Notes under the pieces: model-generated
Database searches by the model: none
Seen by the model: only the letters and a program-made list of their open reading frames with translations
Told to the model about the DNA's origin: nothing
In this document: piece after piece, positions 7,845 to 49,077 of the stretch
Position numbering within the stretch: position 1 is the first letter of the stretch
Layout: every line of letters starts with the position of its first letter
NCBI GenBank assembly: GCA_029858565.1
Contig: JAOUEV010000002.1
Coordinates: 102,428 to 166,427 of the forward strand
Source: Nitrospirota bacterium
GTDB taxonomy: Bacteria; Nitrospirota; UBA9217
Direction of reading: 5' to 3'
Length of the DNA: 64,000 bases
Program-made: the position numbers and the translations under genes

Positions 7845-8141
7845 ATGGCTGACAAGGGACTGAAGAAAGCGATCATCATCGGCGCCGCTCTCGGCGCCGT
7901 TCTTACTCTGGGCGTGGCCCTTTCAATGGACTACTTCCTGTCGAGTTCTCTGCAGGGGACCTGGCGGGATGCTGCCGTGAAGGATGTGACCAAAATGTTC
8001 GGACCATCTTGCGGTCAGAACTGGTTCGCGGTCACCCTGGTCCTGGTGTTCGTCATGGCCTTTCTTGCCGGTTTCGGTGCGATACTCGGGACCGTGGGCG
8101 CCGTCATCATCAACCGGTTCTTTAAATTCCTCCTGAAATGA
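7845..8141 (+). CDS. small two-TM membrane protein, hypothetical
   Basis: 98-aa ORF with two hydrophobic helices. No recognisable motif. Confidence 0.45.
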   Translation: MADKGLKKAIIIGAALGAVLTLGVALSMDYFLSSSLQGTWRDAAVKDVTKMFGPSCGQNWFAVTLVLVFVMAFLAGFGAILGTVGAVIINRFFKFLLK

Positions 8142-8283: not shown

Positions 8284-9510
8284 ATGTTGTTCAATATCCT
8301 TAAACGCTCATTCCTGAACCAGAAGCGCGCGATGGCGGTCATGATCGTGTCCGTGGCCGTCGGGACCGCTATAGCAGCGTCCCTGCTCGCGCTATCCTTC
8401 GATATTTCATCAAAGGTCTCCAGGGAACTTCGTTCCTTTGGCGCGAATATCGTGGTCCAGCCCCGGATAACAGGATTGGCAGGCGTGAGCGGACAGAAAC
8501 GCTATCTGCGCGAGGCCGACATTCCCAAGGCAAAGACCATCTTCTGGAGGCACAACATCCTCGGTGTTGCACCACTGCTCGTTGTGCGTGATGAAAAGCA
8601 GAACGCCCAGGTGCTCGGGACCTGGTACCTCAGGACGATCGCCTTGCCGGGAGAAAAAAAAGGATTCGATACCGGCGCTTCTACGGTCATGCCATGGTGG
8701 TCTATAGAGGGGAAATGGCCAGCGGGGGACAGCGAAATCCTGGCGGGCATCGGCATTGCAGAAAAGAAGAACCTTAAGATCGGGGACCGCGTTGCCGTAG
8801 GAGGAAGGCAACTCAGGATATCGGGCGTCCTGAACGCCGGCGGGAGAGAAGATGACATGTTCGTCGGCGAGCTCGCGACGGTACAGCTCTTATACGGCCT
8901 CCCCGGCAGGATATCCCAGGTCGCGGTGAGCGCGCTGACCACGCCCATGGACGATTTTGCCTATAAGGACCCGGCGACCATGTCCCGGAAGGAATATGAG
9001 AAGTGGTACTGCACGGGGTATGTCACCTCGATCGCAAAGCAGCTCGAAGAGGTCTTCGCAGGCTCGGTTGCCCGTCCCATCTGGCCGGTCGCCGAGGCAG
9101 AGGGAAATGTGTTAAGCCGACTTGAGCTCCTGATCATACTGCTGACCGCAGTGTCGCTCCTTGCCGCAGCCCTGGGTATATCCACGACCATGATCATGAG
9201 CCTGCTTAAGCGGACCGAGGAGGTCGCGCTCATGAAAGGGCTCGGGGCGAACACGCTGCAGACGGTTACCGTGTTCCTTTCCGAGGCGCTCCTCATCGGC
9301 CTGGCCGGCGGCGCGGTCGGTTATCTTCTTTCCCTGGGCATATCAAGCTATCTCGGATATCAGGTCTTCGGCACGGCGCTGGAGCAGAAGGGGATGCTTC
9401 TGCCGATCAGCATCGGCGTATCCGAGGTGATCTCGGTGCTCGGGGCCTACCTCCCGATCAGGCGTGCGCTTCGGATAAAACCAGCAATTGTGCTGAAGGG
9501 AGGCCAATAG
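8284..9510 (+). CDS. ABC transporter permease, FtsX/MacB-LolC/E-like
   Basis: N-terminal TM helix, ~200-aa periplasmic domain, and a C-terminal FtsX block LMKGLGANTLQTVTVFLSEALLIGLAGG with three further TM helices. Confidence 0.85.
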   Translation: MLFNILKRSFLNQKRAMAVMIVSVAVGTAIAASLLALSFDISSKVSRELRSFGANIVVQPRITGLAGVSGQKRYLREADIPKAKTIFWRHNILGVAPLLVVRDEKQNAQVLGTWYLRTIALPGEKKGFDTGASTVMPWWSIEGKWPAGDSEILAGIGIAEKKNLKIGDRVAVGGRQLRISGVLNAGGREDDMFVGELATVQLLYGLPGRISQVAVSALTTPMDDFAYKDPATMSRKEYEKWYCTGYVTSIAKQLEEVFAGSVARPIWPVAEAEGNVLSRLELLIILLTAVSLLAAALGISTTMIMSLLKRTEEVALMKGLGANTLQTVTVFLSEALLIGLAGGAVGYLLSLGISSYLGYQVFGTALEQKGMLLPISIGVSEVISVLGAYLPIRRALRIKPAIVLKGGQ

Positions 9511-9547
9511 TCGATCTGCGGAAGCTTTACGCAAGATACTCTTCCTT

Positions 9548-10627
9548 ATGAATGCCTGGTTCAGATATTTCCTGACACGATCGATCTCTCAGCGGAGGGG
9601 GCGGTTCATACTGTCGTCATCGGCCGTGCTGCTGTCCGTCATGGTGGTGACCGCGCTGGTCACGGTCTCGCTGGGAGTGCGCGAAAAGATCGGCGCGGAG
9701 CTGAAGCGCTACGGCGCCAACATGATAGTGACACACGGGGAAGGACAGTTGATCCCGGGAGCTGTCGCACAGGAGGTTCGTGGTCTTTCTCCGGCGATCA
9801 AGGACGCAGCATCGCAGCTCTACGGCAGCGCAATGCTCCGGCAAACGGCCGTGGAGATCGTTGGGATCGAACCAGGGAAAATGGCCGGCTACCGGGTAGC
9901 TGGCTCCTTGCCGGCCGGCCCCTCCGAACTGATGGTCGGTGTCAATCTGCGCGAGGCCATCAAGGTCAAACAAGGAGGCACGATAGCATTTGACGGTCAT
10001 TCCGGGGAGTTCACCATTTCGGCTTTTTTTGAAAAAGGGCCTGACGACGATTCCACGATCGTGCTGACCCTCGCAGGAGCGCAGAAACTGCTTGCCATGG
10101 ATGGCGTGAGCGCTGTGCTCCTGAACGCGGATTCCGCCCGGCTGCTGGAGGTTGAGCGCCGGGTGCGTGAACGCTGGCCTTTTCTCGAGGTGAAGACCCT
10201 GAAACAGGTTGCTGTTGCCGAGGAGCGGATACTGGGCAGGATCCAGCTGCTCATGCTGCTGGTGACGGTGGTGGTGCTCTTTTCCTCCATGGTCGCCTTG
10301 GGAAGCACAATGGGCGCCAACGTGATTGAACGCATGGAGGAGATCGGATTGATGAAGGCCATCGGTGCGACCCGGGGCGACATCCGCAGTTTTTTCATGG
10401 CTGAGGCGGCCCTGGCCGGGCTCACTGGTTCGCTTGCGGGATACGGAGGCGGCGTTCTGGCTGCCGAGGCTGTTTCTCGCACAGCTTTCGGTTCCTTCGT
10501 TCCCTTGAACGTTCTTGTCATTCCCGGTGCGCTGGTCCTGGGGATGGTCATTGCCATAGCCGCAACCTATATCCCGGTACGAGGCGCCATGAAGGTAGTG
10601 CCAGCCAGGATACTGCGCGGCGAATAG
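9548..10627 (+). CDS. ABC transporter permease, FtsX/MacB-like (second permease)
   Basis: Same architecture. FtsX block LMKAIGATRGDIRSFFMAEAALAGLTGSLAG. Confidence 0.85.
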   Translation: MNAWFRYFLTRSISQRRGRFILSSSAVLLSVMVVTALVTVSLGVREKIGAELKRYGANMIVTHGEGQLIPGAVAQEVRGLSPAIKDAASQLYGSAMLRQTAVEIVGIEPGKMAGYRVAGSLPAGPSELMVGVNLREAIKVKQGGTIAFDGHSGEFTISAFFEKGPDDDSTIVLTLAGAQKLLAMDGVSAVLLNADSARLLEVERRVRERWPFLEVKTLKQVAVAEERILGRIQLLMLLVTVVVLFSSMVALGSTMGANVIERMEEIGLMKAIGATRGDIRSFFMAEAALAGLTGSLAGYGGGVLAAEAVSRTAFGSFVPLNVLVIPGALVLGMVIAIAATYIPVRGAMKVVPARILRGE

Positions 10628-10764
10628 AGTGAAAGGTGAAGCTCCTTTCGCGGAATTAGGATTGCTGCGGGATTTCGAGAGGATTATCCATGTTTCCCGC
10701 TCTTTTGTCAGTATTGAACAACCACCCCTGTTAACGGGCCGGAATCTTGTTGAGGATCGATACA

Positions 10765-11433
10765 ATGTCTTTTATAACCATTGAGAAGGTGAGCAAGGAA
10801 TACGCAACGACCCGCGCGCTGAATGGCGTGGATTGCACGATCGGATCGGGCGAGTGGGTCAACATCATGGGGCCGTCGGGGTCGGGAAAAAGCACGCTTC
10901 TGAACATCCTCGGGGGACTCGACAGGCCCACCGAGGGCATTGTTACCATCAACAGCACGGACATCAACAGACTGTCGGAGGATGAACTTGCACGCTTTCG
11001 GCGGGAGACGATCGGTTTCGTGTTCCAGCAATCGCACCTGATACCTTACCTCGATGCCACCGAGAACGTGATGCTTGCCCAGTATTTCCACAGCATCCCA
11101 GACCGCGGGGAGGCAGAAGAGGCGCTGAAGCGCGTTGGACTGGGCCACCGCCTCCGGCATCGGCCGGCCGAGCTCTCGGGCGGCGAGCAGCAGCGCGTCG
11201 GGATCGCCCGCGCGCTGATCAACAATCCCAACCTGCTGCTCGCTGACGAACCGACCGGCAACCTTGACCGTTCCAATACCAGGAACATCCTCGAACTGCT
11301 CAAAGAGCTTCACGCCCAGGAAAAGTTCACCGTCGTAGTAGTGACCCACGACCCCTTTGTGTCCCAATGGGCCCGTCGGGTGATCTCCATGGAGGACGGA
11401 AGGATCATCAGGGATGAGCCGGTTCGTTCTTGA
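10765..11433 (+). CDS. ABC transporter ATP-binding protein (MacB/LolD-type)
   Basis: Walker [10 protein letters not shown], signature [15 protein letters not shown], Walker [13 protein letters not shown]. Start taken at [10 protein letters not shown] (Met7 of the listed ORF), with GAGGA 7 nt upstream. Confidence 0.9.
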
Positions 11434-12802
11434 AGCGCTGTTCATTGGAGCGAAAGAAGGCGTCAAGCTTTCTTTTTGCACTCTGCTGGTATTCTCGCTT
11501 CTGAGCGGTCGCGAGCGTCTTCCCCTGAAACGGTCCGTGATTGCCGGACTCCTTGTCGTGTTCCTTGCCTCTTTTCTCCTGCTTACCCTGCCGGTCACGT
11601 TCGAAATGCGCGAAATTATCGTTCGGATGATAGGGTATGTCTTTGGAATTTTCTTTTTTCTTTCCATTGGCGCGCTCTTTCACGAGTCAGGGACCGATAT
11701 CATCGGCCCTTTCCGCAGCGTTGGCGGGAAAAGGGTGCTCCAGATCCCTATCCTGCTGGTCTTAACCATTGGTTATTTTGCGCCTGACATGGCCGGCTCT
11801 GCGCTGTTCATTGCAGACCTTGCATCCATGGCACAGGCGCCTATGCCGGTCTTTCTTGCTTCCGGGCTCGGGTTTGTCCTGTTCATTGCCGGGACCGCTG
11901 CCCTTGGCAGGAAGGTACAGCCTGTGTTCCCGCGTCTTTTTGGTTTGCCCCAGGTGCTGCTGACCCTGGCACTCATCAAACTGCTTGCCGGCGGGATACG
12001 GGGATTTGCCGAACTTACTCTCATCCCGGCGGTGCAGGCTGGTCTCATGAAACTGGTCCACGATGTCATTCACCAGACCTTTGTCATGATCCTTGTGCCT
12101 GACCACCCCGTGCTTTCGACGACAACATGGAACTTTGTGGGTTTCTTGTTTCGGGAGACCGCGGGGCTTTGGTTGTCTCTGATCCTGCTGGTAACGCCGC
12201 TCGTCCTGTTCGTGATCAAACATTTCCGGGAGCCCCTTCGGTATCCCGGGAGCATTGATCGTCCGTCTCAAAGACGCATGTTCATCAGGTCTATTCGCGA
12301 TCAGCGGCTTCTCAAATCGCTTCCCGTGCTTTTCTTTTTAGCGGTAATCATCATGACCTGGTTCTCCCAGCAGGACGCGCCCGGTGTAAGCCTGTATCTA
12401 CCGGACCCTAAACCTGTCGCTGCGGACGGAGATGCATTGAATATTCCCATCCAATCGCCGACAGAAGACCTTCGCGACGGCGCTATTCATAAATTTTCGC
12501 TCCTGATTCGTGACGAACAGGTCAGGTTACTGATCATGAAAAAGCCTGACGGGACGCTCACGGCATGCCTCGATGCATGCGAAATATGCCCGCCCGATGG
12601 TTATGGCCAATCACGAGAACATGTTGTCTGCCTTTACTGTAAAACCCCCATCCCCTTTGATACGGTCGGGAAGCCCGGTGGATGCAATCCAATCCCCCTG
12701 CCAACTGTTGTGACGGACAAGGAAGTGCGGCTGACAATGAAGGATATCTCCGAAAAATGGGTCCTGGTGAAGTCCGGGGCATCCAAGACTACTGTAAAAT
12801 GA
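11414..12802 (+). CDS. polytopic membrane protein with FTR1-like N-terminal domain (degenerate RExxE motifs) and C-terminal Cys-rich COG4393/DUF2318-like domain
   Basis: TM1 LFIGAKEGVKLSF and a later TM FLFRETAGLWLSL resemble the two FTR1/EfeU REGLE helices, but with KEGVK and RETAG. C-terminal domain CLDACEICPPDGYG...CLYCKTPIP...GGC. Overlaps the ATPase gene by 20 nt. Confidence 0.55.
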   Translation: MSRFVLEALFIGAKEGVKLSFCTLLVFSLLSGRERLPLKRSVIAGLLVVFLASFLLLTLPVTFEMREIIVRMIGYVFGIFFFLSIGALFHESGTDIIGPFRSVGGKRVLQIPILLVLTIGYFAPDMAGSALFIADLASMAQAPMPVFLASGLGFVLFIAGTAALGRKVQPVFPRLFGLPQVLLTLALIKLLAGGIRGFAELTLIPAVQAGLMKLVHDVIHQTFVMILVPDHPVLSTTTWNFVGFLFRETAGLWLSLILLVTPLVLFVIKHFREPLRYPGSIDRPSQRRMFIRSIRDQRLLKSLPVLFFLAVIIMTWFSQQDAPGVSLYLPDPKPVAADGDALNIPIQSPTEDLRDGAIHKFSLLIRDEQVRLLIMKKPDGTLTACLDACEICPPDGYGQSREHVVCLYCKTPIPFDTVGKPGGCNPIPLPTVVTDKEVRLTMKDISEKWVLVKSGASKTTVK

Positions 12803-13797
12803 AATCGATTGCCGCCCGAATATATGCATTTCTGCGCTCTGCTGCTCTCACGGTCTGGCTTGTGGGATTGTTCCTGTTCTATTATCTCTCGATGGCCGTG
12901 TGGAGCAATGAAGCTTTTGGTATGTACATTGTCCATCTTTCTTCGAATAACCTGTTTCGTGGGTTTTATCTTTTATTCCTCTCCAATGTGGTTCTTCGTC
13001 TCATAGAGAGACTGCAACGCCTTTGGTCAACAAGGGCGCAATTCATTCTCCAATTGCCCTTGTTGGTGGGGCTTTTGCTGTTCCTGCCGGCCTTGTTCCT
13101 GAGCTTGAACATGAGAAAGACACTGCGAACTCCACCGGTTGGCATGGGAGACATCATCACTGTTCCCCACGGCACGGAGAAGTATCAGATCCAGTCTGTT
13201 GAGCCTGCGCTCAAGAAACGCTCTCTCAGGAATGAAGGGGCCGCGGTCTTTGATTACGAACCGGGGCTCATGCTCCTGGATCCTCAGGGAAGAACGTACC
13301 GGGTCGGCGCTTTTCCTCCCAGTCCTGTCGGCTCAACCTATATGCATGTGCTGACATTCGGGATCGGCCCTGGTGTGGAACTTAAAAAGGGGAGAGAAGT
13401 GGTATTTCGCGGATATATAGCGTTGCAGTTGACGCCATTTGGAAATGTCGACGTTTTTGACAATTCTGATTTGCCCTATAAGTTCTATTTGAGCATAATT
13501 CCCAATAGTACAATAAGAAAAGGAAAGGAATCCGCGAATACGTATGACCTTGAGAAACCGCGGTATAATGTCACTGTCGTAAAGGAAGAACAGACCATTT
13601 TAAACGGGGAAACAGATTCTTCGATCAGAATTGATGAAAACCTCACTCTTTCGTTCTTTACGCCATCGGACTGGGTCATAGTTGAAGTTGTTCAAGATAG
13701 GTTTTTGCCATGGTTTGTTCTTTCGATATGCTTAATCTGCGTGGGAATTGTGCCCTTCCTCTTCTCAATGGTGATGTCTAAACTAAGGGCGAAGTGA
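12799..13797 (+). CDS. membrane protein, possibly a short ResB/Ccs1-like paralogue
   Basis: Start ATG overlaps the upstream stop (ATGA), giving MKSIAARIYAFLRSAALTVWLV. Three N-terminal TM helices, a ~200-aa soluble domain, and a C-terminal TM helix (WFVLSICLICVGIVPFLF). Topology and C-terminal region (DWVIVEVVQDRF) loosely resemble ResB. No CcsA partner. Confidence 0.4.
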   Translation: MKSIAARIYAFLRSAALTVWLVGLFLFYYLSMAVWSNEAFGMYIVHLSSNNLFRGFYLLFLSNVVLRLIERLQRLWSTRAQFILQLPLLVGLLLFLPALFLSLNMRKTLRTPPVGMGDIITVPHGTEKYQIQSVEPALKKRSLRNEGAAVFDYEPGLMLLDPQGRTYRVGAFPPSPVGSTYMHVLTFGIGPGVELKKGREVVFRGYIALQLTPFGNVDVFDNSDLPYKFYLSIIPNSTIRKGKESANTYDLEKPRYNVTVVKEEQTILNGETDSSIRIDENLTLSFFTPSDWVIVEVVQDRFLPWFVLSICLICVGIVPFLFSMVMSKLRAK

Positions 13798-14163
13798 ACG
13801 GCTTTTTATTTCGTTTGAAATGCGCAATAGTTGTCGTACATAAGTCCCTATCGGACGGCAGATTAGGATGAACTTGGCTAGTTATTGTTGAGGAACAAAA
13901 TTATTAGGTGTTTTTTTTATTAAATTTCATGGCATTATAAAAAAATTGCTTTGAGCATTATAAGTCTAGCATGTTTGAAAACCAACAAGGCTTTTGAGCG
14001 ATAACACTCAAAATAAGTCATTGGTGTCTTGTAATATAAAGCTAATATATTGATATTTAAAGAATGCCTATGCTGGTATATGAATTGCAAAGTATATTAA
14101 TTGAAAAAGTAATGTATATAAGCTTGGAAATCTATTAAACATATTGATTTTTAAGGAGAAGCG
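13798..14163 (+). promoter_or_regulatory. ~366-bp strongly AT-rich intergenic island; presumed promoter/regulatory region of the multiheme cytochrome operon
   Basis: Read directly: long A/T runs (ttttttttattaaatttcatggcattataaaaaaattg...), in sharp contrast with the GC-rich flanks. Ends with GGAG 6 nt before the ATG at 14164. Confidence 0.5.
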
Positions 14164-14964
14164 ATGGCCACTTGCAATAGATTCACGAAAACCAATCCCT
14201 TTATCTCATTGCTTGCGCTTGGCTTGGTTTGTGTATGTTTTGCTGCTCCGGTTGATGCGCTGACAATCGTCGGTAGCAAGCATGATTTTACATCGACTGC
14301 CTCGGGCACGAACAATTTCGCGGATAATTTCTTTGTGCCGGATCCGGCAACGGGATTCCCAACGCCGATCGATCAGGTCTGCGTTTTCTGTCATACGCCT
14401 CACCATGCAGCGCTCGGCGCAGCCGCCCCTCTGTGGAACAGGACCTCGTCGCCTCCTGATGCGACGTATACATTCAAAATGTATACAAGCGAGTCCTTCA
14501 CGTATGGTCCTGTTGGCGGTCCCACGGGCATCAGCGCCTTGTGCATGAGCTGCCATGATGGTGTATCGTCTATCGCGGTGAGCACGCTTCTGAACCCCCC
14601 GGGAGACGCGACGCCCGATCAGGTCACTACATCGATGTCCTCCAATGGTGCAATAGGTGCGGTGTATAATGGTGATCCTCTTACGAATGGATGGGGCGCG
14701 AACCTTGGTAATATTGACCCCTTGTTCCCGGGAACCAAGATCATAGACCTGAGCAACGATCATCCGATTTCATTCGTCTATCCGACCAGTGCTTCGGGCA
14801 TCTATCCTTCTACTTCGATAGATACTCGTCTCCGTCTCTTTGGTGCTAGCAAGGACATGGTCGAGTGTGCGACCTGTCATTTGGTGCACGACAACCAGTA
14901 CGAGCCTTTCCTGGCAATGCCGAACAACGGCAGCCAGATGTGTCTATCCTGTCATCAAAAATAG
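14164..14964 (+). CDS. tetraheme c-type cytochrome (doubled-CXXCH type)
   Basis: Signal peptide, then four CXXCH motifs: CVFCHTPHH, CMSCHDG, CATCHLVHD and CLSCHQK. GSKHDF precedes the first motif, as in the Geobacter doubled-CXXCH domain. Confidence 0.85.
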   Translation: MATCNRFTKTNPFISLLALGLVCVCFAAPVDALTIVGSKHDFTSTASGTNNFADNFFVPDPATGFPTPIDQVCVFCHTPHHAALGAAAPLWNRTSSPPDATYTFKMYTSESFTYGPVGGPTGISALCMSCHDGVSSIAVSTLLNPPGDATPDQVTTSMSSNGAIGAVYNGDPLTNGWGANLGNIDPLFPGTKIIDLSNDHPISFVYPTSASGIYPSTSIDTRLRLFGASKDMVECATCHLVHDNQYEPFLAMPNNGSQMCLSCHQK

Positions 14965-15045
14965 ATCCGGAACTGCAGCCATCTGTAGTCGGAAATATTT
15001 ATGAAGAATTATTTAAGAAGAGTGAACGCGGCCTCGGAGGTGGGT

Positions 15046-17787
15046 ATGAAAACGGTGAAGATTTCGATCATTCTGATGATTGCCATCGTGGCAGTGGCCA
15101 GTGCTGCCTTCGCGGCCCCGGTCCGGATCGGGACCCTGGAGCAGAATATCTCGGACCCTGTGCGGGTGGCTTTGGATGCTCAGGGGAATATATATGTGAC
15201 CGAGGCACAGCGCGACCTCGTCCTGGTTTATACCAGTAAAGGTCAGCATAAGACTGGCCTTTCGGTTCCTCGACCGCTCGGTGTTGCGGTTGACGGGAAC
15301 GGAACGATTTATGTAAGTTCTGGAAATCAGAGGACCAAAAACCCGGTGTATGTATTCACCCCGGACTTTGTGAAAGCCGGATGCCTGGGTGGGGCATCAT
15401 GCGCGGAATTTGTAAAGCCCATCGATGTGGCTGTTGATGGAAAAGGCAATGTGTATGTCGTAGACAATGACCCTGATTATAGTGTGGTCAAGGTGTATGA
15501 CGGTGCAGGCTCACTTATCCGTACGATTGCCGGCAGTGGCGCATCGCGGTTGAATAAACCCATGAGTGTTGCCATCGACGATACAGCCGGGGAAATCATA
15601 ATTTCCGATCAGCCGGATGTGATTGTTGCTGGTCAAAAGGCGATTGGCGCACGGATCCAGGCTTTTGATGGATCTGGAATTGCTGTGCGGACGATTGGTC
15701 AGTATGGGATCGAGGTCGGTCAGTTCAAAGAAGCTACAGATATTGCCATTGATGCCAAGGGGCAGCTGTATGTTACTGACGGCGCTTTGGGTGTCACTAA
15801 TATTATCAATGCCTCCGACGGGAACATCGTCGGTATTCTTTATGACGCCGGCAAGCCTGGTTATAACCCTAACGGTGTTGTGGTAAGCAAAAATGGACTT
15901 GCGTATGTGGTCATGCAAAAAGGCGAAGGCAGCAAGGGCAGGATTGACATTTACGCTCTTGAAGGATATGTGACGATGGCGGCTGCGCCTGCAGCGCTGA
16001 TGTTCGAGGCTCGGCAGTTCTCGGGCAATCCTTCCGCTCAGACGGTATCGGTAAGCAACAGCGGCAGCGGCACTCTCAACTGGACGGCATCGAAGAGCCA
16101 GTCGTGGATCGTGCTGGGGCAGGATGCAGGTACGGCGGGACCGAATGGATCTTCCGGTCTTCCCGTTGGTATAGACATCTCCGCGTTGAAGGCGGGAATT
16201 TATACAGGCACTGTTGCGGTCGTATCGGATTTCGGCCAGACGGAGTCAGTCGGTGTTTCTGTGAATGTGCTGAATCCGCTGATCCTGAATATCAGCAAGA
16301 GCACGATGACATTTACTGCTAAGAAGGGCAAAACAGCGGCTGCCCAGTCTCTTGCAACAGGGATCGACAACGTCACCACGGCAACGGCGTGGAGCGCGAA
16401 GTCCGATTCAACGTGGCTTTCTGTAACACCGGCATCGGGAACTGCGACTGCCGCGTCTGCGGTTGCTGGTGCAAACGTAACGATCAACACCGCTGGCATG
16501 GGTGTTGGAACCTATAAGGGTGCTATCACGGTATCTGCCCCCGGAGCTATCGGAGATGGCAGTGCTGTTATGGTTATGCTTACGATAACCCCGACCACGA
16601 AGATCACCGTAAATACGAACAATGAAAATGCCAAGTTCTCGGTAAGCGGCCCGTCGACATACAATGGTAGCGGCTCATCATGGAGTGTGGAAGATGTTCC
16701 TGCGGGCGATTATAAGGTCAACTTTGAGCCTGTTGCCGGCTATCGCAAACCGAAGGCAGCGATGGGGGCTGTCCCGGCGGATGGCGAGGTTTCCTTCTCG
16801 GGAAATTATACGTCCTTCGCTGATATTGCTGCGCGGCGGAATATCCTTGTGGCCGGTGCTCTTGGCGTAAAAGCGCGTGATTCTGAGGTCAGTGTGTATA
16901 GCAATACGGGTGCTCTTTCGCAGGCAATTGATCTGTCAGCGAATTACGGTGCCAGCGTGGCGGTCGCCGATGTTGACAATGACGGCGCAGAAGAGATTAT
17001 TGTTAGTGCCGCAGAAAAGGGGAGCAATCCCGCGACGGTTACGGTTATGAAAGCTGACAGGACCGTACTGAACAGCTTCGTTCCTTTTGCGAATGCCAAT
17101 GCTGTTCGGGTCGCGGCAGGAGACATGGATGGAAATGGGTCTGCGGAAATTGTCGTCATCCCAGCGCCTACCAGAAACGGCGCTGCCGGGACCGCAGCAG
17201 TGTATACCTACGACAGTGCGAGCGCGAAGATGATCGAAGTCGCGGCAGTGACCATGTATAAGAAGACGTCAATAGTTGACGTTGCTGTCGCGGATATTAA
17301 TGGTGATGGAAAAGCGGAACTTTTAACACTAGCCGCGTTTGAAGGAAAATCAGCAGGAATGGTAAAAGCCTGGAGCGTGAGCGCTGCAAAGGGTGGTTGG
17401 TCAGCAGCCTTGATCAACGATATCACCATGAACGGTGAAATGATGGGCGCTGCAGTGGCCGGTGGCGATGTCGATGGAGACGGTGTAAGTGAGATTATTG
17501 TCGGTTCCGCGGCAGATGCGGGTGGTATGCTGACCATCATTAAAGGCGACGGAACTCAGACGAAGGTGAAGGTCTTTGGCAGGAAGGATGTGGCTGGTAT
17601 GACGCTGGCCGTTGCTGACCTCGATGGCGACGGTAAGGCTGATCTCGTTGCGGCGCCTGTGCTTGAGAGTGGGAATGCGAAGAAGGATGGTGCGATCGAG
17701 GTCCTGAATTCGAATGGCACCTTGATGTTCTCGATCGATGTCAAGGCGGATGGTGCGAATGTTGCCATCGGTGAACTTGGTCTCTAA
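15046..17787 (+). CDS. secreted NHL-repeat beta-propeller / Ig-like x2 / PEGA-like / FG-GAP beta-propeller protein
   Basis: Start at Met16 of the listed ORF, with GGAGG 5 nt upstream and a signal peptide MKTVKISIILMIAIVAVASAAFA. NHL-like repeats: PRPLGVAVDGNGTIYVS and PIDVAVDGKGNVYVVD. Two Ig/BACON-like domains. FG-GAP repeats: VADVDNDGAEEIIVS, AGDMDGNGSAEIVV, VADINGDGKAELL, GGDVDGDGVSEIIVG and VADLDGDGKADLV. Confidence 0.8.
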   Translation: MKTVKISIILMIAIVAVASAAFAAPVRIGTLEQNISDPVRVALDAQGNIYVTEAQRDLVLVYTSKGQHKTGLSVPRPLGVAVDGNGTIYVSSGNQRTKNPVYVFTPDFVKAGCLGGASCAEFVKPIDVAVDGKGNVYVVDNDPDYSVVKVYDGAGSLIRTIAGSGASRLNKPMSVAIDDTAGEIIISDQPDVIVAGQKAIGARIQAFDGSGIAVRTIGQYGIEVGQFKEATDIAIDAKGQLYVTDGALGVTNIINASDGNIVGILYDAGKPGYNPNGVVVSKNGLAYVVMQKGEGSKGRIDIYALEGYVTMAAAPAALMFEARQFSGNPSAQTVSVSNSGSGTLNWTASKSQSWIVLGQDAGTAGPNGSSGLPVGIDISALKAGIYTGTVAVVSDFGQTESVGVSVNVLNPLILNISKSTMTFTAKKGKTAAAQSLATGIDNVTTATAWSAKSDSTWLSVTPASGTATAASAVAGANVTINTAGMGVGTYKGAITVSAPGAIGDGSAVMVMLTITPTTKITVNTNNENAKFSVSGPSTYNGSGSSWSVEDVPAGDYKVNFEPVAGYRKPKAAMGAVPADGEVSFSGNYTSFADIAARRNILVAGALGVKARDSEVSVYSNTGALSQAIDLSANYGASVAVADVDNDGAEEIIVSAAEKGSNPATVTVMKADRTVLNSFVPFANANAVRVAAGDMDGNGSAEIVVIPAPTRNGAAGTAAVYTYDSASAKMIEVAAVTMYKKTSIVDVAVADINGDGKAELLTLAAFEGKSAGMVKAWSVSAAKGGWSAALINDITMNGEMMGAAVAGGDVDGDGVSEIIVGSAADAGGMLTIIKGDGTQTKVKVFGRKDVAGMTLAVADLDGDGKADLVAAPVLESGNAKKDGAIEVLNSNGTLMFSIDVKADGANVAIGELGL

Positions 17788-17865
17788 TTCATGATCGTGA
17801 CCAGCATGAACATGAATGGAATTAAAAGATTGATACGGCGTACTCTGCAAGAAGGAGCGGTGACT

Positions 17866-20800
17866 ATGAAGAAATCTACTCTACTTACGATTTCAATTCT
17901 GATTATGCTGTTCGGCATGCTGATTGCCGTGCGGGACGTCGCGGCACTCGATGCCCCGCATAACGCGAACGACGTATCTCGGTCGATCACCTGCTCCACG
18001 TGCCACGTTTCTCCATTGGGACCGACCCCGACGTGGAAAACAATCCCGACGACCACGGACAATACCTATACAAACAATCTTTGTACAAGCTGTCACGCGA
18101 GCGGCAAGCTCACGACCAGCAAGTATGAGGATATTAAGACCCACTCTGCGGCGAACACGGGAAGCACCCGGTGGGGCGGTGGCTGGACGGTTGAGTGTCG
18201 TGTCTGCCATCATGCCCATAACCAGGCGCAGCAGACCACGTTCTATTCAGATGCTAATAATAATGTGCTGACCGGTACGGTGGCGGCGCTGACGTCGTCG
18301 GTATCTGCGACCATGTCCACGCTTACTGCGTCCGCGGGGTCGATGGGAACCGATGGTTACGTTGGTTACCTTCTTATCCCGAATACCGCATATCCTACGA
18401 TCATGTATCGTGTTATAGCCAATGACGCGACGAAGTTTACCGTGAAAGGTGCTATTAACCTGGCTCGTACGGCAGTGGGAAAGACCTGGGCACTGCGCTA
18501 CGGCAAAATGGTGAAAACGCAAATTGCCTATACGAACCCGACTTCGGTGAATGCCTCGGTCAAGTTCTACAATAATGCAGGCAACAATTCCTTTGCAGAA
18601 ACCGCGAGCCCATCAACATCCCTTTGCATGGTCTGTCATACCCAGACCAAGCATTTCAAGAATGACGGAACATTTGAGACTGCAGGTCATCCGGCAGCTG
18701 TCGGAACGGCCTGCACTTCCTGCCATAAACATAATACGGGCTTCAAGGCAAGCGGATGTAATGGCTGTCACGGCCAGAGCGGATCGACCGGCGCGCCTCT
18801 TGTTGCCGGTGATCTTGTCTCGCCAGCAACCGGCCACGCCGAAGGCGCACATCTGCGGCATGCGGTGACCCTGTCTCTGAGTTGTGCTGTCTGTCACGCT
18901 GGAAATACCATGCCTGCGCTCGACAGCGAGATAACCATGTCGTTCAGCGACGCGGCAGCAGGTGGAGCATATCAGGGCACTGCTCTCAACGCTCCTTACA
19001 CCTATAGCGCCAATGTCACCCTGGGCGGCACGCAAACCTGTTCCTCTTTATATTGCCATAGCTCGGGTCAGAGTGCCACGGGTGGTTCGCTTGCCGGCGG
19101 AGACTACAAGTCAGTGAACTGGACAGGAGCCGGCCTGAACTGCGGCAGCTGCCACGTTGATATGGATGCAAGCGCATCGGCAACTGGCAGCCATATTAAG
19201 CACGCACAGGATAAGGCCATTGCTTGTGCGACCTGCCATGATGGATACACAGAAACGTCAACGGCCGCGGCAACGCACGCAAATGCCTCGATCAATCTGA
19301 GCTTCAGCGGTAGGGCTGCTGGCTCGACATACTCCCAGGGAAACTCCCATGCTGTGCAGAACGGATACGGCCAGTGTTCAACGAACGATTGCCATAGCAC
19401 CGGCCAGGGTTCCGATGGCAGTTCGTCCGGCATTACCTATGCGTCTCCGACGTGGGGCGGAACGGTGAATTGCAGCTCCTGCCACAAGAACATGGATGCT
19501 GATGCGACCGCACCGGGCAGCCATGTGAAGCACGCGCAGAGCGCGGCGATTGCCTGCGCCACCTGTCACAACGGATACACCGAGACCACCGCAGCCGTGG
19601 CAACCCATGACGACGGCACGGTGGACATGAGCTTCAGCGGTCCGGGAGACGGCACGTTCTACACCGGCGGTACGACGAGCGGCAACTACGCGCTCGGCGG
19701 CGGTTACGGTTCTTGCTACACCAGCTCCTGCCACAGCTCGGGCCAGTCCGCCACGGGTACGGCCTCGCCGCTGACCTATGGTTCACCGGTATGGGGCGGT
19801 ACCTTGGACTGCGGTTCCTGCCACACGAACATGGATACTGATGCGACCGCACCGGGCAGCCACGTGAAGCATGCCCAGAGCGCGGCCATCGCTTGCGCCT
19901 CCTGTCACAGCGGTTACACTGAGACCACGGTTGCGGTTGCAACGCATAATAACTCGACAGTCAACGTGACGATGGCGACCGGCTTCTACACCGGCGGCAC
20001 AACGAGCGGCAACAACGCGCTCGGCGGCGGCTATGGTTCCTGCTACACCAGCTCCTGCCACAGCTCGGGCCAGTCAGCCACGGGTACGGCCTCGCCGCTG
20101 ACCTATGGTTCTCCGGCATGGGGAGGTACACTGGACTGCGGCTCCTGCCATAAGAACATGGATACTGATGCGACCGCACCGGGCAGCCACGTGAAGCATA
20201 CCCAGAGCGCGGCCATCGCTTGCGCAACCTGTCACAACGGTTACACCGAGACCTCGGTTGCCGCGGCATCGCATAACAACGGCACGGTGGATATGAGCTT
20301 CAGCGGGACGGGTGCCGGGACGTTCTACAGCGGCGGCACAGTGAGCGGCGACAACGCGCTCGGCGGCGGCTACGGTTCCTGCTACACCAGCTCCTGCCAC
20401 AGCTCAGGCCAGTCAGCGACGGGTACGGCATCACCGTTGACCTACGGCTCTCCTGCGTGGGGCGGAGCGCTGGATTGCGGCTCCTGCCACAAGAACATGG
20501 ATACGGATGGAACTGCGCCGGGAAGCCACGTTGGCCATGCACAGACAGCGGCGATTGCGTGCGCAACCTGCCACAGCGGGTACACCGAGACGACGGTTGC
20601 GGCTGCAACGCATAATAACTCGACAGTCAACGTGACGATGTCGACCGGCTTCTACAGCGGCGGCACGGTTTCGGGTGACAATGCGCTGGGCGGCGGTTAT
20701 GGAACCTGTTTCACAACGAACTGCCATGGCTCATCCTCACCCGTCTGGGGCACGAACACCACGAATGCTTCCTGTACGAAGTGCCATGGTGTTTCCGGCG

Positions 20801-21747
20801 CAACCCCTGCGCAGTATACCGCGGATAACAATATAGCGGCGCCTGGATATGTTTCTGTCGCTCCGGTCGGTACCGGTCGCGCAACATCTGGTGCGACAGC
20901 TGCGACAGATCCGAAGGTCGGAGCTCATAACGCACACCTTAAGGGCGTGAGCAACTATTCGGATCCCATTGCCTGCAGCGCCTGCCACAATACGTCATCA
21001 GGGCACATGGATGGTTCCGGCACACTGACATTCAGCGGTTTGTCTACATCGAACGGCGCCGCTGCAAATTATAGCGCGCCGAATTGTTCAACAACCTACT
21101 GTCATTTCGGTAAATCGATCAATTTGTACTCGCCGGCAGTTTCGAGCGCTACAGTGACCTGGAATGATACGGCTTACCTGAGCGGCACACCGAGCATCGG
21201 CGGAGACTGCGCGAAGTGCCATCTCTCACCGCCTTCGGCAACAGGGACCCATGCAGGCTACAGCACCTTCACAGACTGCAACACCTGTCATCCTCATGTG
21301 AGCACAGACGGTACGTTCAACAACAAATCGCTGCATATCAACGGCGTAGTCGAAGCCGCAAGCGGTTGCGACGGCTGCCACGCATATCCGCCTGCAATAG
21401 GCGACGGCAAGGCGTATAAGGGTTCCGCGCTGCTCGGTAAAGGAGCGCATACATCCCATGTCAACTATCTCCTCCTGAGGACCGGATTGACCCTTAGCGC
21501 TAAGGGTGATACTTATACCGGTGCAACGGTTGCGGCGATCTGCGGCGTTTGTCACAACACGTCAGCCGATGCCTTCCATAAGAATGGCAATGATGTCCGT
21601 GACCTCCTGATCCCATCGTCTTACCTCTTTGGTACGGGGACGCCGACATATAACGGGAATCCCGCGACTACGACCAATAAGAACTGCTCGAATGTCAGCT
21701 GCCATTTCAATGTAACTCCGCTGTGGCAGCAGACCGCGGGTCAGTAA
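17866..21747 (+). CDS. giant multiheme c-type cytochrome (~31 heme-binding motifs: 23 CXXCH + 8 CX4CH; Geobacter-type CX4CH...CXXCH repeat domain)
   Basis: Start at Met26 of the listed ORF, with AAGGAG 8 nt upstream and signal peptide MKKSTLLTISILIMLFGMLIAV. Motifs counted by eye include CSTCH, CTSCH, CRVCH, CMVCH, CSSLYCH, CGSCH, CATCH, CYTSSCH x3, CFTTNCH, CSTTYCH and CSNVSCH. Triheme module CX4CH-CXXCH-CXXCH repeated about six times. Confidence 0.9.
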   Translation: MKKSTLLTISILIMLFGMLIAVRDVAALDAPHNANDVSRSITCSTCHVSPLGPTPTWKTIPTTTDNTYTNNLCTSCHASGKLTTSKYEDIKTHSAANTGSTRWGGGWTVECRVCHHAHNQAQQTTFYSDANNNVLTGTVAALTSSVSATMSTLTASAGSMGTDGYVGYLLIPNTAYPTIMYRVIANDATKFTVKGAINLARTAVGKTWALRYGKMVKTQIAYTNPTSVNASVKFYNNAGNNSFAETASPSTSLCMVCHTQTKHFKNDGTFETAGHPAAVGTACTSCHKHNTGFKASGCNGCHGQSGSTGAPLVAGDLVSPATGHAEGAHLRHAVTLSLSCAVCHAGNTMPALDSEITMSFSDAAAGGAYQGTALNAPYTYSANVTLGGTQTCSSLYCHSSGQSATGGSLAGGDYKSVNWTGAGLNCGSCHVDMDASASATGSHIKHAQDKAIACATCHDGYTETSTAAATHANASINLSFSGRAAGSTYSQGNSHAVQNGYGQCSTNDCHSTGQGSDGSSSGITYASPTWGGTVNCSSCHKNMDADATAPGSHVKHAQSAAIACATCHNGYTETTAAVATHDDGTVDMSFSGPGDGTFYTGGTTSGNYALGGGYGSCYTSSCHSSGQSATGTASPLTYGSPVWGGTLDCGSCHTNMDTDATAPGSHVKHAQSAAIACASCHSGYTETTVAVATHNNSTVNVTMATGFYTGGTTSGNNALGGGYGSCYTSSCHSSGQSATGTASPLTYGSPAWGGTLDCGSCHKNMDTDATAPGSHVKHTQSAAIACATCHNGYTETSVAAASHNNGTVDMSFSGTGAGTFYSGGTVSGDNALGGGYGSCYTSSCHSSGQSATGTASPLTYGSPAWGGALDCGSCHKNMDTDGTAPGSHVGHAQTAAIACATCHSGYTETTVAAATHNNSTVNVTMSTGFYSGGTVSGDNALGGGYGTCFTTNCHGSSSPVWGTNTTNASCTKCHGVSGATPAQYTADNNIAAPGYVSVAPVGTGRATSGATAATDPKVGAHNAHLKGVSNYSDPIACSACHNTSSGHMDGSGTLTFSGLSTSNGAAANYSAPNCSTTYCHFGKSINLYSPAVSSATVTWNDTAYLSGTPSIGGDCAKCHLSPPSATGTHAGYSTFTDCNTCHPHVSTDGTFNNKSLHINGVVEAASGCDGCHAYPPAIGDGKAYKGSALLGKGAHTSHVNYLLLRTGLTLSAKGDTYTGATVAAICGVCHNTSADAFHKNGNDVRDLLIPSSYLFGTGTPTYNGNPATTTNKNCSNVSCHFNVTPLWQQTAGQ
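19040..21030 (+). repeat. tandem ~327-339-bp DNA repeats (about six units; four near-identical between ~19376 and 20706) encoding triheme cytochrome modules
   Basis: tgctacaccagctcctgccacagctc recurs at ~19714, 20041 and 20380. cataataactcgacagtcaacgtgacgatg recurs exactly ~660 bp apart. Long and short unit variants alternate, suggesting a ~660-bp higher-order repeat. Confidence 0.8.
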
Positions 21748-21881
21748 GGGAGGGTGTGGACGTGTATACCGTACTGAGGTATAATAGCCAGCCTGCATGC
21801 AAGGCTGCAGTTCATAATCAGAAACGCTCAGCCGCATCCGTGGAATCGACCGGCAGAGCTCTTACAGAAGGCGAGGTACTT

Positions 21882-24425
21882 ATGATGAAGAAAGCTTGTA
21901 ACGATAGCGCGGTAAGCCGGCTCACATGGCTGGGGCTTGCGGTAGTCCTGATCATGCTGATCTCCGCATTCGTTGCTGTACCTCAGGCAACAGCCGGAAC
22001 GTATACGGTAGATACGTGCGGCGATTGCCACGCATACTCCACGGGAACGTTCACGGACGGTTCGGCCCGGAATAATCCGGCCGGCGCCTTCCCGGGCTCG
22101 CATCAACAGCATGTGACGACCTACCAGATGGCCTGCACGGTCTGTCACATCAACAACGGAGCTAATTTTGCCCATCGGAACGGCAATGTTGATATAAATG
22201 CCTCGATCAGCGGAGGCACATACAGCAAAGGTTCATTCTCCCAGGTTAATACGACATCTCTGGGTCGGTGCACTAACGTCTCTTGCCATAGCAACGGAAC
22301 CCCGCTGAACGGTACAGCAACATTCGCAACAGCGACCTGGGGTTCTCCGGCAACAGGTGCTTGCGGAACCTGCCACGGCGTCCTGGCTTCCAGCGCTCCG
22401 ACCTCAACGCATCACAGCAAACACGTGGGAGCTGCTGCGGGATATCAAAACGCCTGCGGTTGGTGCCATAGCAGCACGGTGAACATGACAGCGAATTCAA
22501 CCGTTCAGGCGACGGTCACTTCAACTACGCTGCATGTCAACGGAATCAAGAACGTCTCCTTTGAAACCACCACGAACGCCGGGGCGAACGCCTACGGAAG
22601 CGGGCAGGCCTATAGCTGCACCAACCTCTACTGTCATAGCCAGGGGAACACGTTCACATCACCCTATACAGCGCCGAACACGACAGCGCTCTGGACATTG
22701 GCTGCAGGTTCGCTGAACTGCAACAGCTGCCATGGTTCGACCGTAGCAACAACCACTCGCGGTAATGGCAAGCCTGAGTACGCCAACGGCACGCCGAAGA
22801 AGAACAGCCATGCGGGCCATTTCCCGTGGAACACGCTCCAGTCCTGCCAGATCTGCCATTCGGCAACGACCACGGACGGGGTGAGCGTTACGAACAAAGC
22901 GAACCATGTGAAGAAGTCCTACAACGTGGGTTCCTACACGGGAGGCGGTGCCTGGAACACCTTGGCAAACTTCACCTATACCTATAATGCCAATGGCAGC
23001 ACCTGTAATACCAACCAGTGCCATGCTGGGCTGAACGCACAGTGGGGCTCGACAGGAGCCGGCTCCGGCAGCGAATGGAACTGCATTACCTGCCACTCCA
23101 GCTCGTTCAAGAAGTTCCTCGGCACGGGAACGATCCGGCAGGTTGTCGGTACGACCAACGCCGCTGATTTCAACATGTCAACGATCGGGAACGGCGCAGG
23201 TTCGCGTCACCTGTACGGTGCTTCGACAATCGTGAAATGGGACTGCATCATCTGTCACGAGGAAGGTCAGGCAACGGGCGCTCCTGGAAGGGTTGACTGG
23301 CAGAACCATAATGACTTGGGCGGCTTGATCCATCTGCGGAACGTGGACACGATCGATCCTGCGAACTCGGGCTGGGCGATTAACAACAAGTCCTGGACGA
23401 CGACCGATTATCAGAGTATGGACGAGTTCTGCGTCTCTTGCCATGATTCCAACGGGGCAAGCGCGATCGCGGTGAATGCTGCGAACAACGGACTCTTCAC
23501 CGGCACTGCTGCCTGGAACACCTATCGTGCAGGCTGGAAATCAATGGCAGGAACTTTCCCCGGCAGGGCAGCCCTGGCACCGTTCAACTCCACGGACTGG
23601 CGTTCTGGTTATCTGGTTGCATCCACCTCGTCAGTAGGCGCCGGCGAGGGCAGAGCAAAGATCACTGACGTGAAGACCCAATTCTACGCAGGTACTGCAG
23701 GCAACTGGGCGACAACGAACTACAACGGCAATCCGTCGCAGCACGCGGTGCTCGGTACCCGGTACGGCCGGGCCTGGAACACCTGGACCGCCGCAGCCTG
23801 GTCGAGCTACTTCATGAAGAAGTCTCGTGCGAACATCAACGCCATGCGTGAGACCGCGCTACTCTCATGCGCTGACTGTCACGTGCTCGATGCTCCAGGT
23901 GTGGGCGGCAATGCTCATAGCGGTACAGTGAAATACATGCTGTCTACAGTCACTAGTGATGGCATCTGCACAAAGTGTCATTCGACAACTGCCTACGCTG
24001 CGGCGAGCGCTATATCCCGGTGGAATCACAGCTACTCAAGAGGCGGTTACAATGCCTATGGTCTTTCCAACGCAGCAGGTACGGGTTCTCAGCTCGCCTG
24101 TATGATGTGCCATGCTGGCTGGCAGATAGAGTCAACGGTCTCGAGACAGAGGAGCTACGGCGGCATCCATGGATCCTGGACGACCTTCTATCCCATGAGC
24201 ACGGTAGGAAGTGGAAACCTGACGACCTACCGGTTCTTCCCCGGGACCTGGAGAAAGCATTCATATAGTGCTGATAACCAGTGGGGCTCCATGACAGCTT
24301 CGACCTGTTACTTCGGGGCTACAACCGATAATAGCGGATTTGCGAGCTGTACGTCACATGGAAGCGCGACCGGCAGAACTGGAACGACGTACACGCCGAC
24401 GTACACGCGTCCGGTCAAGTACTAA
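21882..24425 (+). CDS. multiheme c-type cytochrome (~15 heme motifs: 12 CXXCH + 3 CX4CH)
   Basis: Start at MMKKACNDSAVSRLTWLGLAVVLIML (Met54 of the listed ORF), with GAGG upstream. Motifs CGDCH, CTVCH, CTNVSCH, CGTCH, CGWCH, CTNLYCH, CNSCH, CQICH, CNTNQCH, CITCH, CIICH, CVSCH, CADCH, CTKCH and CMMCH. Confidence 0.85.
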   Translation: MMKKACNDSAVSRLTWLGLAVVLIMLISAFVAVPQATAGTYTVDTCGDCHAYSTGTFTDGSARNNPAGAFPGSHQQHVTTYQMACTVCHINNGANFAHRNGNVDINASISGGTYSKGSFSQVNTTSLGRCTNVSCHSNGTPLNGTATFATATWGSPATGACGTCHGVLASSAPTSTHHSKHVGAAAGYQNACGWCHSSTVNMTANSTVQATVTSTTLHVNGIKNVSFETTTNAGANAYGSGQAYSCTNLYCHSQGNTFTSPYTAPNTTALWTLAAGSLNCNSCHGSTVATTTRGNGKPEYANGTPKKNSHAGHFPWNTLQSCQICHSATTTDGVSVTNKANHVKKSYNVGSYTGGGAWNTLANFTYTYNANGSTCNTNQCHAGLNAQWGSTGAGSGSEWNCITCHSSSFKKFLGTGTIRQVVGTTNAADFNMSTIGNGAGSRHLYGASTIVKWDCIICHEEGQATGAPGRVDWQNHNDLGGLIHLRNVDTIDPANSGWAINNKSWTTTDYQSMDEFCVSCHDSNGASAIAVNAANNGLFTGTAAWNTYRAGWKSMAGTFPGRAALAPFNSTDWRSGYLVASTSSVGAGEGRAKITDVKTQFYAGTAGNWATTNYNGNPSQHAVLGTRYGRAWNTWTAAAWSSYFMKKSRANINAMRETALLSCADCHVLDAPGVGGNAHSGTVKYMLSTVTSDGICTKCHSTTAYAAASAISRWNHSYSRGGYNAYGLSNAAGTGSQLACMMCHAGWQIESTVSRQRSYGGIHGSWTTFYPMSTVGSGNLTTYRFFPGTWRKHSYSADNQWGSMTASTCYFGATTDNSGFASCTSHGSATGRTGTTYTPTYTRPVKY

Positions 24426-44872: not shown

Positions 44873-44942
44873 ACGCGGGGGGGCTGCGGCGGATCACCAC
44901 GACGGACCGGCCGGGACGCGGCACGCGGGAGAAAGGGGTCTG

Positions 44943-46907: not shown

Positions 46908-47039
46908 AGGGCTTTAATAGATTGCGGGGGCCACCAGGGCCTGGACGGCCTTTACCACGGCCTCCAGACGTGACCGGAGGCGATCTCGTCGCGTCGCATC
47001 CCTCGGAGATGCGGCCGGGAAGGAATTGGGAAGACGCAC

Positions 47040-49016: not shown

Positions 49017-49077
49017 GCGGATTATAAGATCGCGCGCCTGCGCCGGCGGTCCTGACCGGCCAGGGAGGAGGAACAGT

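Follow-up and report, generated by a model that had tools for sequence, protein, structure and literature searches.

Here, I describe a five-gene operon located at positions 8284-13797 of a 64-kb stretch of DNA from a Nitrospirota bacterium (contig JAOUEV010000002.1; the whole stretch of 64,000 nucleotides is called the window below), in which a transporter of the type found in Fet iron-uptake clusters is joined to two altered membrane proteins. The first is a 462-aa protein whose membrane domain descends by profile comparison from the FTR1 permeases, with both iron-translocation motifs lost, and the second a 332-aa paralogue of the cytochrome-biogenesis protein ResB/CcsB in which the conserved transmembrane (TM) histidine has been replaced. 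As judged from these sequences, the operon is a new and uncharacterised variant of the Fet-type accessory module, for which a link to cytochrome biogenesis is plausible. It comprises five genes in the same direction (+), not four: a preliminary description of this DNA, whose open reading frame (ORF) coordinates are borne out, had left the coupled fifth gene (12799-13797) undescribed.

A transporter operon of the Fet type

The first three genes encode a transporter of the ATP-binding cassette (ABC) superfamily. FtsX1 (8284..9510, +; assigned by Pfam, phmmer and NCBIfam) is a MacB-fold (type VII) ABC permease and FtsX2 (9548..10627, +; Pfam and phmmer) is a second one, both carrying the FtsX domain together with the MacB periplasmic core domain, as expected of type VII transporters (Pfam FtsX 3.6e-15 and MacB_PCD 2.4e-9 in FtsX1; 3.9e-17 and 5.3e-8, respectively, in FtsX2). 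The ABC ATPase (10765..11433, +; Pfam and phmmer; ABC_tran 2.2e-37) is taken to start at the ATG at 10765, following the gene call of the source contig (222 aa, contig L004), whereas the mechanically derived ORF starts at a TTG at 10747. The two FtsX permeases and the ATPase of the preliminary description are confirmed by these domains.

In Campylobacter jejuni and in the fetMP-fetABCDEF cluster of E. coli, iron is imported by FetM (an FTR1 protein) and FetP (P19), while FetA (8 TM helices followed by DUF2318 and YHS domains), FetBCD and the thioredoxins FetE and FetF are each required under iron limitation (PMC6083913, PMC10783030). Taking as reference the annotated fetMP-fetABCDEF cluster of the E. 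coli IncF plasmid NZ_CP147560.1 (locus L085), FtsX1 matches FetB (phmmer 7e-90) ahead of FetC (2e-37), FtsX2 matches FetC (1.4e-44) ahead of FetB (3e-37), and the ATPase matches FetD (4e-71). By this one-to-one pairing the transporter is of the FetBCD type; by homology, the three proteins are a heteromeric MacB-fold ABC motor and the counterpart of FetBCD, in keeping with the kinship to the accessory genes of P19/FTR1 (FetMP) loci that had been suspected beforehand. A Lol, MacB or FtsX identity was rejected, since NCBIfam scores of 20-47 bits fall far under the equivalog cut-offs of 225-966; even the top NCBIfam matches of the ATPase, LolD and MacB, are all below cut-off. By these scores, the transporter is not an equivalog of the LolCDE/MacB exporters that the preliminary description had held up against its own proposal.

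The gene for the 462-aa protein (11414..12802, +) starts within the ATPase gene, with an overlap of 20 nt (11414-11433) between stop and start, as had been noticed; its own stop codon is joined by an ATGA overlap, indicative of translational coupling, to the start of the gene for the 332-aa protein (12799..13797, +). The stop/start overlaps of the module are seen again in the distant homologous loci L001, L002 and L006. Downstream, an AT-rich spacer of 366 bp (13798..14163, read directly from the sequence) leads to the first cytochrome gene; no terminator-like site was found in it, counts in the terminator and promoter scans being close to the shuffled expectation. Upstream of the operon no Fur-box-like site was found with a motif that may not be that of the host lineage, the search giving a single chance-level match elsewhere in the window.

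Two further observations concern the borders of the operon. GC content is 0.48-0.50 at 12001-16000 and 0.56-0.60 on both flanks, the low-GC stretch running from the ResB-like gene through the AT-rich spacer and the first cytochrome gene into the beginning of the NHL/FG-GAP gene. Just 5' of the operon lies a 98-aa membrane ORF (7845-8141), which is regarded as outside the conserved module because a homologue at the same position occurs only in locus L009.

The 462-aa protein and its ResB-like partner

The 462-aa protein combines an 8-TM, FTR1-derived domain with a periplasmic DUF2318 (PF10080) domain (assigned by Pfam, hhalign and AlphaFold2 (AF2) modelling), and the 332-aa protein is a ResB/CcsB paralogue (hhalign and Foldseek). 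Single-sequence scans of both proteins against Pfam and NCBIfam return PF10080 alone and, as FTR1 and ResB are invisible to such scans, alignments and hhalign comparisons were needed. Pfam FTR1 (PF03239) has no match to the 462-aa protein even at E 10 and matches only weakly in 3 of 31 homologues (best E 0.0099); full-length homologues number more than 180. In hhalign, the window clade (A2) was compared with uncharacterised proteins in which FTR1 is fused to DUF2318 (A3), using the N-domains only, so that DUF2318 could not contribute to the match; the result (99.4%, E 2.3e-21, 274 columns) shows that the membrane domain is FTR1-derived, and by the alignment both its RExxE iron-translocation motifs are destroyed. 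The AF2 model of the protein has a predicted local distance difference test score (pLDDT) of 79, its membrane domain finds nothing in the PDB with Foldseek, and a PDB sequence search with the profiles of the 462-aa and 332-aa families gave no match.

The first motif is represented by KEGVK (residues 14-18, TM1; 11453..11467, +), a degenerate REGxE-1 that aligns on LREGxEAAL of the FTR1-DUF2318 proteins. The true equivalent of REGxE-2 is PDMAG (residues 124-128, TM4; 11783..11797, +), aligned on FREGxExxLF, and K14, E15, G16, P124, D125 and G128 are each conserved in at least 90% of the window clade. The preliminary description had likewise seen an FTR1-like protein with degenerate motifs, which it read as KEGVK and RETAG; both strings are present, and both the descent and the placing of KEGVK on REGxE-1 stand. 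RETAG (residues 247-251; 12152..12166, +) had been assigned to the fourth helix, yet the AF2 model places it in helix 7, helix 4 holding P124-D125-M-A-G128; moreover, it is not conserved (consensus LFGxxxxLW) and pairs with the helix-7 segment of the FTR1-DUF2318 proteins, not with their second REGxE, and it was rejected as the second motif. As to the two Pfam families that had been invoked, PF10080 is found directly, whereas the relation to FTR1 emerges by profile-profile comparison only.

What the protein has in addition to its REGxE-bearing relatives is a 28-residue insertion after helix 6 (HDxxHQ...PDH), the core of which, H216 D217 xx H220 Q221 ... P229 D230 H231, is encoded at 12059..12106 (+). 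H216, D217, H220, Q221, P229, D230 and H231 are invariant in 31/31 sequences. An exhaustive profile search gave 1555 clusters (50% identity) at E <=1e-3, of which 152 at E <=1e-30, and the co-occurrence of motifs was counted among the best 150 representatives: HDxxH...(P/T)DH is carried by 38 of them, 37 without RExxE, whereas the insertion is found in 0/52 representatives with at least two REGxE. By this distribution, the gain of the His/Asp site coincides with the loss of RExxE; intermediate motif forms, e.g. LKEGLE, exist among the same 150. Arg and Lys abound in loops 31-40, 167-178 and 271-301, which would be cytoplasmic by the positive-inside rule; this arrangement predicts that both the insertion and the DUF2318 domain face the periplasm.

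The C-terminal domain (residues 354-447; 12473..12754, +; Pfam), of the DUF2318/FtrD-like kind, is matched by PF10080 with 84 bits against a cut-off of 26.3, and the same family is matched by all 31 homologues; the CxxC...CxxC...C domain of DUF2318 type proposed for the C-terminus in the preliminary description is therefore real. Its cysteines, C385 and C389xxC392-x13-C406xxC409-x14-C424, of which those of the pattern are invariant in homologues, agree with the published DUF2318 pattern CxxC-x13-CxxC-x14/15-C (PMC6083913). A Foldseek search of the C-domain against the PDB returned Rieske domains throughout (E 0.04-0.5, best prob 0.99), matches which are weak (TM-score ~0.15 over the whole 462-aa protein) and provide a lead only.

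The fifth gene encodes a protein without a match to Pfam ResB (PF05140), which is matched weakly in 15 of its 33 homologues (best E 1.9e-5). Profile comparison is clearer: the family of the 332-aa protein (A4) aligns with bona fide ResB (A5, a profile that takes in the window ResB at 42555-44036) over 313 columns with 99.4% and E 3.8e-21, and the AF2 model (pLDDT 86) has the cytochrome-c synthase CcsBA 7S9Y as its top Foldseek match in the PDB (E 1.1e-4, prob 1.00). All 8 bona fide ResB sequences compared share F192 and H193 ('FH', in a TM helix), and the histidine is presumably the TM heme-ligand His of CcsBA. This His has given way to Leu or another residue in the 332-aa protein and in each of the 11 aligned paralogues that are linked to DUF2318, which cover five phylum-level lineages; the 332-aa protein is thus, on alignment, a shortened, histidine-less ResB/CcsB paralogue that has kept the periplasmic beta-domain. 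H183 was considered as a functional histidine and rejected, for it is invariant in the Nitrospirota clade and varies across phyla. The gene that follows encodes a cytochrome, not a CcsA partner.

Distribution and surroundings of the module

A scan of GTDB genomes for homologues of the 462-aa protein gave 77 loci, in which the gene families were mapped by phmmer. Two classes are of concern here, class a, in which the RExxE pair is lost (29 loci), and class b, in which the FTR1-DUF2318 protein has two REGxE (32 loci). Gene order in class a is FtsX-FtsX-ABC-DUF2318-ResBlike in 26 loci and DUF2318-ResBlike-FtsX-FtsX-ABC in 3, and in class b it is DUF2318-FtsX-FtsX-ABC, the Fet order, in 32. The ResB-like gene stands directly 3' of the DUF2318 gene in 28/29 class-a loci, the single exception stopping at a contig edge, and in 0/32 class-b loci. 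Within 10 kb, CcsA is encoded in 11/29 class-a and 1/32 class-b loci (Fisher p = 8e-4), and an ORF with at least three CxxCH in 8/29 and 0/32, synteny counts which are not independent, since most class-a loci are from Nitrospirota. The five-gene unit also occurs in metagenome-assembled genomes labelled Actinomycetota, Geobacteraceae, Ca. Geothermocultor, Thermodesulfobacteriota and Coriobacteriia.

A same-strand CcsA or bona fide ResB gene directly adjoins the module in 11/45 non-duplicate loci. In L001, L018, L020 and L029 the order is ResB-CcsA-(p182-ResB-fragment)-module, and in L038, from a Geobacteraceae genome, it is MHC-CcsA-p138-module-...-ResB-like-CcsA-ResB (MHC, multiheme cytochrome). 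Searches by phmmer with E. coli FetM, FetP and FetE found none in the 64-kb window or in the class-a loci with 10-kb flanks.

A second DUF2318 plus ResB-like pair, without an ABC transporter, is present in the same genomes as the module (L001:17646-20560 (-); L006:17384-20252; L008:4534-6785; L011:15858-18100) and often lies 3' of a B12 radical S-adenosylmethionine (SAM) gene. In L001 this paralogous pair adjoins a 98-aa protein with a weak Redoxin match (E 0.002), the sole thioredoxin-related signal obtained. Related loci also hold further CcsA/ResB-like pairs (CcsA2 + p239), which could be motif-specific heme lyases.

The partners found beside the module in other loci are present in the window too, but scattered. 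Directly after the spacer comes a cluster (14164..24425, +; Pfam and motif count) that encodes multiheme cytochromes of 266, 1318 and 900 aa and an NHL/FG-GAP/BACON protein, and whose cytochromes hold 39 CxxCH and 11 CxxxxCH, i.e. 50 heme motifs, in agreement with the ~50 hemes estimated before. Pfam scans of the window ORFs likewise uphold the earlier statement that P19, cupredoxin and canonical FTR1 are missing from the window. A bona fide ResB (42555-44036) and CcsA (44033-44872) pair is encoded at 42555..44872 (+; PF05140 5.8e-29, PF01578 3.6e-32) and is like the one that directly adjoins the module in L001, L018, L020 and L029. At 32848..34589 (+) two ORFs of 235 and 347 aa, without a Pfam match, correspond to the p182 + ResB-fragment-like pair (phmmer 6e-27 and 6e-20 against the L001 genes); pairs of this type separate CcsA from the module in L001 and L018 and adjoin the module in L014, and the L001 homologue of the second ORF resembles a C-terminal fragment of ResB (PF05140 2.6e-5).

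Other genes of the window are noted as follows. The giant cytochromes at 17791-24425 (1318 and 900 aa) carry 35 CxxCH and 11 CxxxxCH and match PF09698 ('CxxxxCH...CXXCH'). Among the five radical-SAM genes (27282-28697, 30116-31582, 51994-53376, 53428-54906 and 61298-62629), four have B12-binding domains, and the last is the orthologue (phmmer 5e-201) of the module-linked B12 radical-SAM gene of many Nitrospirota loci; that gene is found close to the module, in L001, L006, L011 and L030 just 3' of it, and is often accompanied by genes for an SRPBCC protein and for a membrane protein of 120-140 aa. Directly 3' of ResB-CcsA lie the genes for three large tetratricopeptide repeat (TPR) proteins (685, 658 and 659 aa; 44850-51983), one with a sub-threshold match to the CcmH/CycH TPR family (37 bits, cut-off 42). 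Between the cytochrome cluster and ResB-CcsA, all on the (-) strand, are two PMT-family glycosyltransferases (25110-26348 and 37551-38819) and two GDSL/SGNH hydrolases (31528-32745 and 39538-40710), which may be linked to cell-envelope or protein glycosylation.

Possible functions and relation to known systems

The fifth gene and the recurrent same-strand adjacency of CcsA or ResB shift the likely role of the module from Fe/Mn transport to cytochrome-c maturation. The reading favoured here, tentatively and at slightly less than an even chance, is that a variant of the Fet accessory module has been recruited to System II cytochrome-c maturation. It draws, besides these two points, on the FetBCD counterparts, the FTR1 descent with loss of both motifs, the invariant His/Asp insertion that avoids an intact RExxE pair, the conserved stop/start overlaps, the CcsA and multiheme cytochrome genes within 10 kb of class-a loci, the 50 heme motifs and the ResB-CcsA pair of the window itself, and the failure to find FetM, FetP or FetE. 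The proposal of a metal (Fe/Mn) handling or redox-coupled transport module, made in the preliminary description, is still compatible with the data in its broad wording, Fe/Mn transport being no longer the likeliest role.

The five proteins probably form one inner-membrane complex. Such a complex would no longer import iron through the FTR1 channel and would, driven by ATP, assist System II from the periplasmic side. MacB-fold transporters are mechanotransmitters, and the motor would turn cytoplasmic ATP into conformational work. The pseudo-CcsB subunit would dock the apocytochrome or the CcsBA synthase; the handling of metal or heme, or else the proper redox poise of the CxxCH thiols, would fall to the DUF2318 cysteines together with the His/Asp site. 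All this would serve the very large multiheme cytochromes of the adjacent genes. In a wider and somewhat less likely form of this reading, multiheme-rich anaerobes (Thermodesulfovibrionia-like Nitrospirota, some Geobacteraceae, Geothermocultor, Coriobacteriia and others) would hold an undescribed ATP-driven System II accessory machine, made of a repurposed FTR1-DUF2318 permease that has lost the RExxE pair and gained a periplasmic His/Asp site, a FetBCD-type motor and a histidine-less pseudo-CcsB.

Several points weigh against a recruitment to cytochrome-c maturation. FetABCD of C. jejuni, the sole relatives that have been characterised, are required for iron-limited growth (PMC10783030). One acidic residue has been kept in each former motif (E15 and D125), so that some cation passage may persist, and the loss of the TM His speaks against a CcsB-style handling of heme by the ResB-like subunit. 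Within the window, the operon and the cytochrome genes are kept apart by the AT-rich spacer, and the ResB-CcsA pair is 29 kb from the module. Elsewhere, most related loci have no CcsA in reach, many of them being on short contigs, the Actinomycetota locus L037 has housekeeping neighbours only, and the class-a loci come mostly from the one phylum.

The first alternative is that the module still serves the acquisition or homeostasis of iron or another metal, the His/Asp site and the DUF2318 cysteines replacing P19 and RExxE, the FetBCD-type motor assisting, and the ResB-like protein acting as a periplasmic adaptor only, in order to feed the iron demand of heme-rich cells. All characterised or annotated relatives are linked to iron, FetA-D being needed under iron limitation (PMC10783030), and the nearest recognisable relatives are the FTR1-DUF2318 permeases with two REGxE, which in Ca. 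Methanoperedens are followed by a gene whose N-terminus, read by eye, resembles metal regulators of the DtxR family. In addition, E15 (TM1) and D125 (TM4) are kept, and clusters of three His and two Asp are usual in metal sites. Yet both RExxE, the iron-translocation residues that define the family, are lost, no P19, oxidase, thioredoxin or metal regulator was found in the operon or the 64 kb, no Fur-box-like site was seen upstream (with the reservation on the motif given above), and the family of the obligate partner of the 462-aa protein is not known outside cytochrome-c biogenesis. On balance, a persisting metal role is regarded as unlikely, albeit the main contender to the recruitment favoured here.

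An improbable alternative would make the operon a membrane module of extracellular electron transfer, in which DUF2318 would bear an Fe-S cluster (Rieske-like fold) and serve as a relay connecting membrane or cytoplasm with the adjacent multiheme cytochromes. This would fit the Pfam name of PF10080 ('membrane iron-sulfur containing protein'), the exclusively Rieske matches of the C-domain in Foldseek and the ~50 cytochrome hemes directly beside the operon. Those fold matches are weak, however, as noted above; the 462-aa family has no conserved TM Cys or His pairs and no quinone-site or heme-b features, and there is no obvious route of Fe-S delivery to a Sec-inserted periplasmic domain. Neither the MacB-type motor nor the ResB-like subunit would have a role in a relay, and only 8/29 related loci have cytochromes nearby. 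Finally, a generic MacB/LolCDE-type exporter (of lipoproteins, peptides or drugs) having the DUF2318 and ResB-like genes as mere neighbours is highly improbable: it would account for the FtsX and MacB_PCD domains and for LolD and MacB as best, albeit sub-threshold, NCBIfam matches of the ATPase, but every equivalog model for Lol, MacB or FtsX scores far too low, the best-matching characterised system found is FetBCD, the five genes with their overlapping stops and starts are kept together across several phyla and in two gene orders, and Pfam scans detected no membrane-fusion or TolC partner in the operon or its immediate neighbours.

FetABCD is widespread and needed under iron limitation, and has long been unexplained; the published proposal is that of a vague relay of 'reducing power' (PMC10783030). 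The clade described here, in which the FetBCD/DUF2318 core stands apart from P19 and FetM and is linked to a paralogue of a cytochrome-biogenesis protein, may therefore be regarded as a natural experiment on the role of that core. If the System II link is functional, then a MacB-type motor, a pseudo-permease and a pseudo-CcsB would make up a new class of cytochrome-c maturation component, in organisms whose cytochromes have dozens of hemes and unusual CX4CH sites. A transporter fold would then clearly have shed its translocation motifs and gained a periplasmic binding site. Were the accessory machine to be real, FetABCD itself might be a general periplasmic redox/metal 'engine' and not an iron transporter. 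Should the module simply be an iron system, it would be a P19-independent and RExxE-independent branch of the FTR1 superfamily.

Among known systems, the Fet cluster is the natural term of comparison. DUF2318 genes 'almost always' map to fet-type clusters according to Liu et al. (PMC6083913), and a full-text literature search surfaced only Fet papers and no paper tying DUF2318/PF10080 to ResB or to cytochrome maturation. The module shares with FetABCD an ATPase and a pair of FtsX/MacB_PCD permeases, all matched one to one, and its 8-TM protein resembles E. coli FetA in ending with a periplasmic DUF2318 domain of identical Cys pattern (32% domain identity). E. coli FetA was nonetheless rejected as a close full-length homologue, for only DUF2318 aligns (hhalign prob 0.3% for the membrane domain), and the 462-aa protein lacks the YHS domain of FetA. 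Unlike the Fet cluster, the module has the gene order B-C-D-A in place of A-B-C-D and no FetM, FetP (P19) or TlpA-like FetE/F nearby, and it has a ResB-like fifth gene and a His/Asp insertion; its neighbours are cytochrome-biogenesis and cytochrome genes, not iron-uptake genes.

Closer to the 462-aa protein are the FTR1-DUF2318 fusions (L053-L084) of Acidobacteriota, Planctomycetota, Chloroflexota, Spirochaetota and Ca. Methanoperedens, with 23-26% identity over its residues 5-446. Helix count, an RRK-rich loop before the last TM helix, DUF2318 and the type of ABC partner are common to both. The fusions differ in their two canonical REGxE, the first in a start of the form 'M(L/F)E..(I/V).LREG.EAAL' and the second, FREGxE, in helix 4, and in being matched by Pfam FTR1 (1e-31 to 7e-45) besides PF10080; in the 32 loci there is no 28-residue insertion, no ResB-like neighbour and no nearby multiheme cytochrome. 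Their loci, e.g. L055:10007-14477 and L060:10001-14889, have FetBCD-like genes 3' and no P19 or separate FTR1 near, and look like an undescribed minimal FTR1 system; in those of Ca. Methanoperedens the DtxR-like resemblance mentioned above was read in the next gene. E. coli FetM matches all 32 fusions (1e-9 to 1e-19), and it is indirectly, via these fusions, that a fold ancestry common to the window protein and FTR1/EfeU/FetM (PF03239) is shown. Unlike the latter, the 462-aa protein has neither the RExxE pair nor an oxidase or P19 partner.

Lastly, the 332-aa protein shares with ResB/CcsB (CcsBA 7S9Y/7S9Z) the N-terminal TM helices, the periplasmic beta-rich domain and the C-terminal TM helix, while being ~130-160 residues shorter and having a DUF2318 protein, not CcsA, as its partner.

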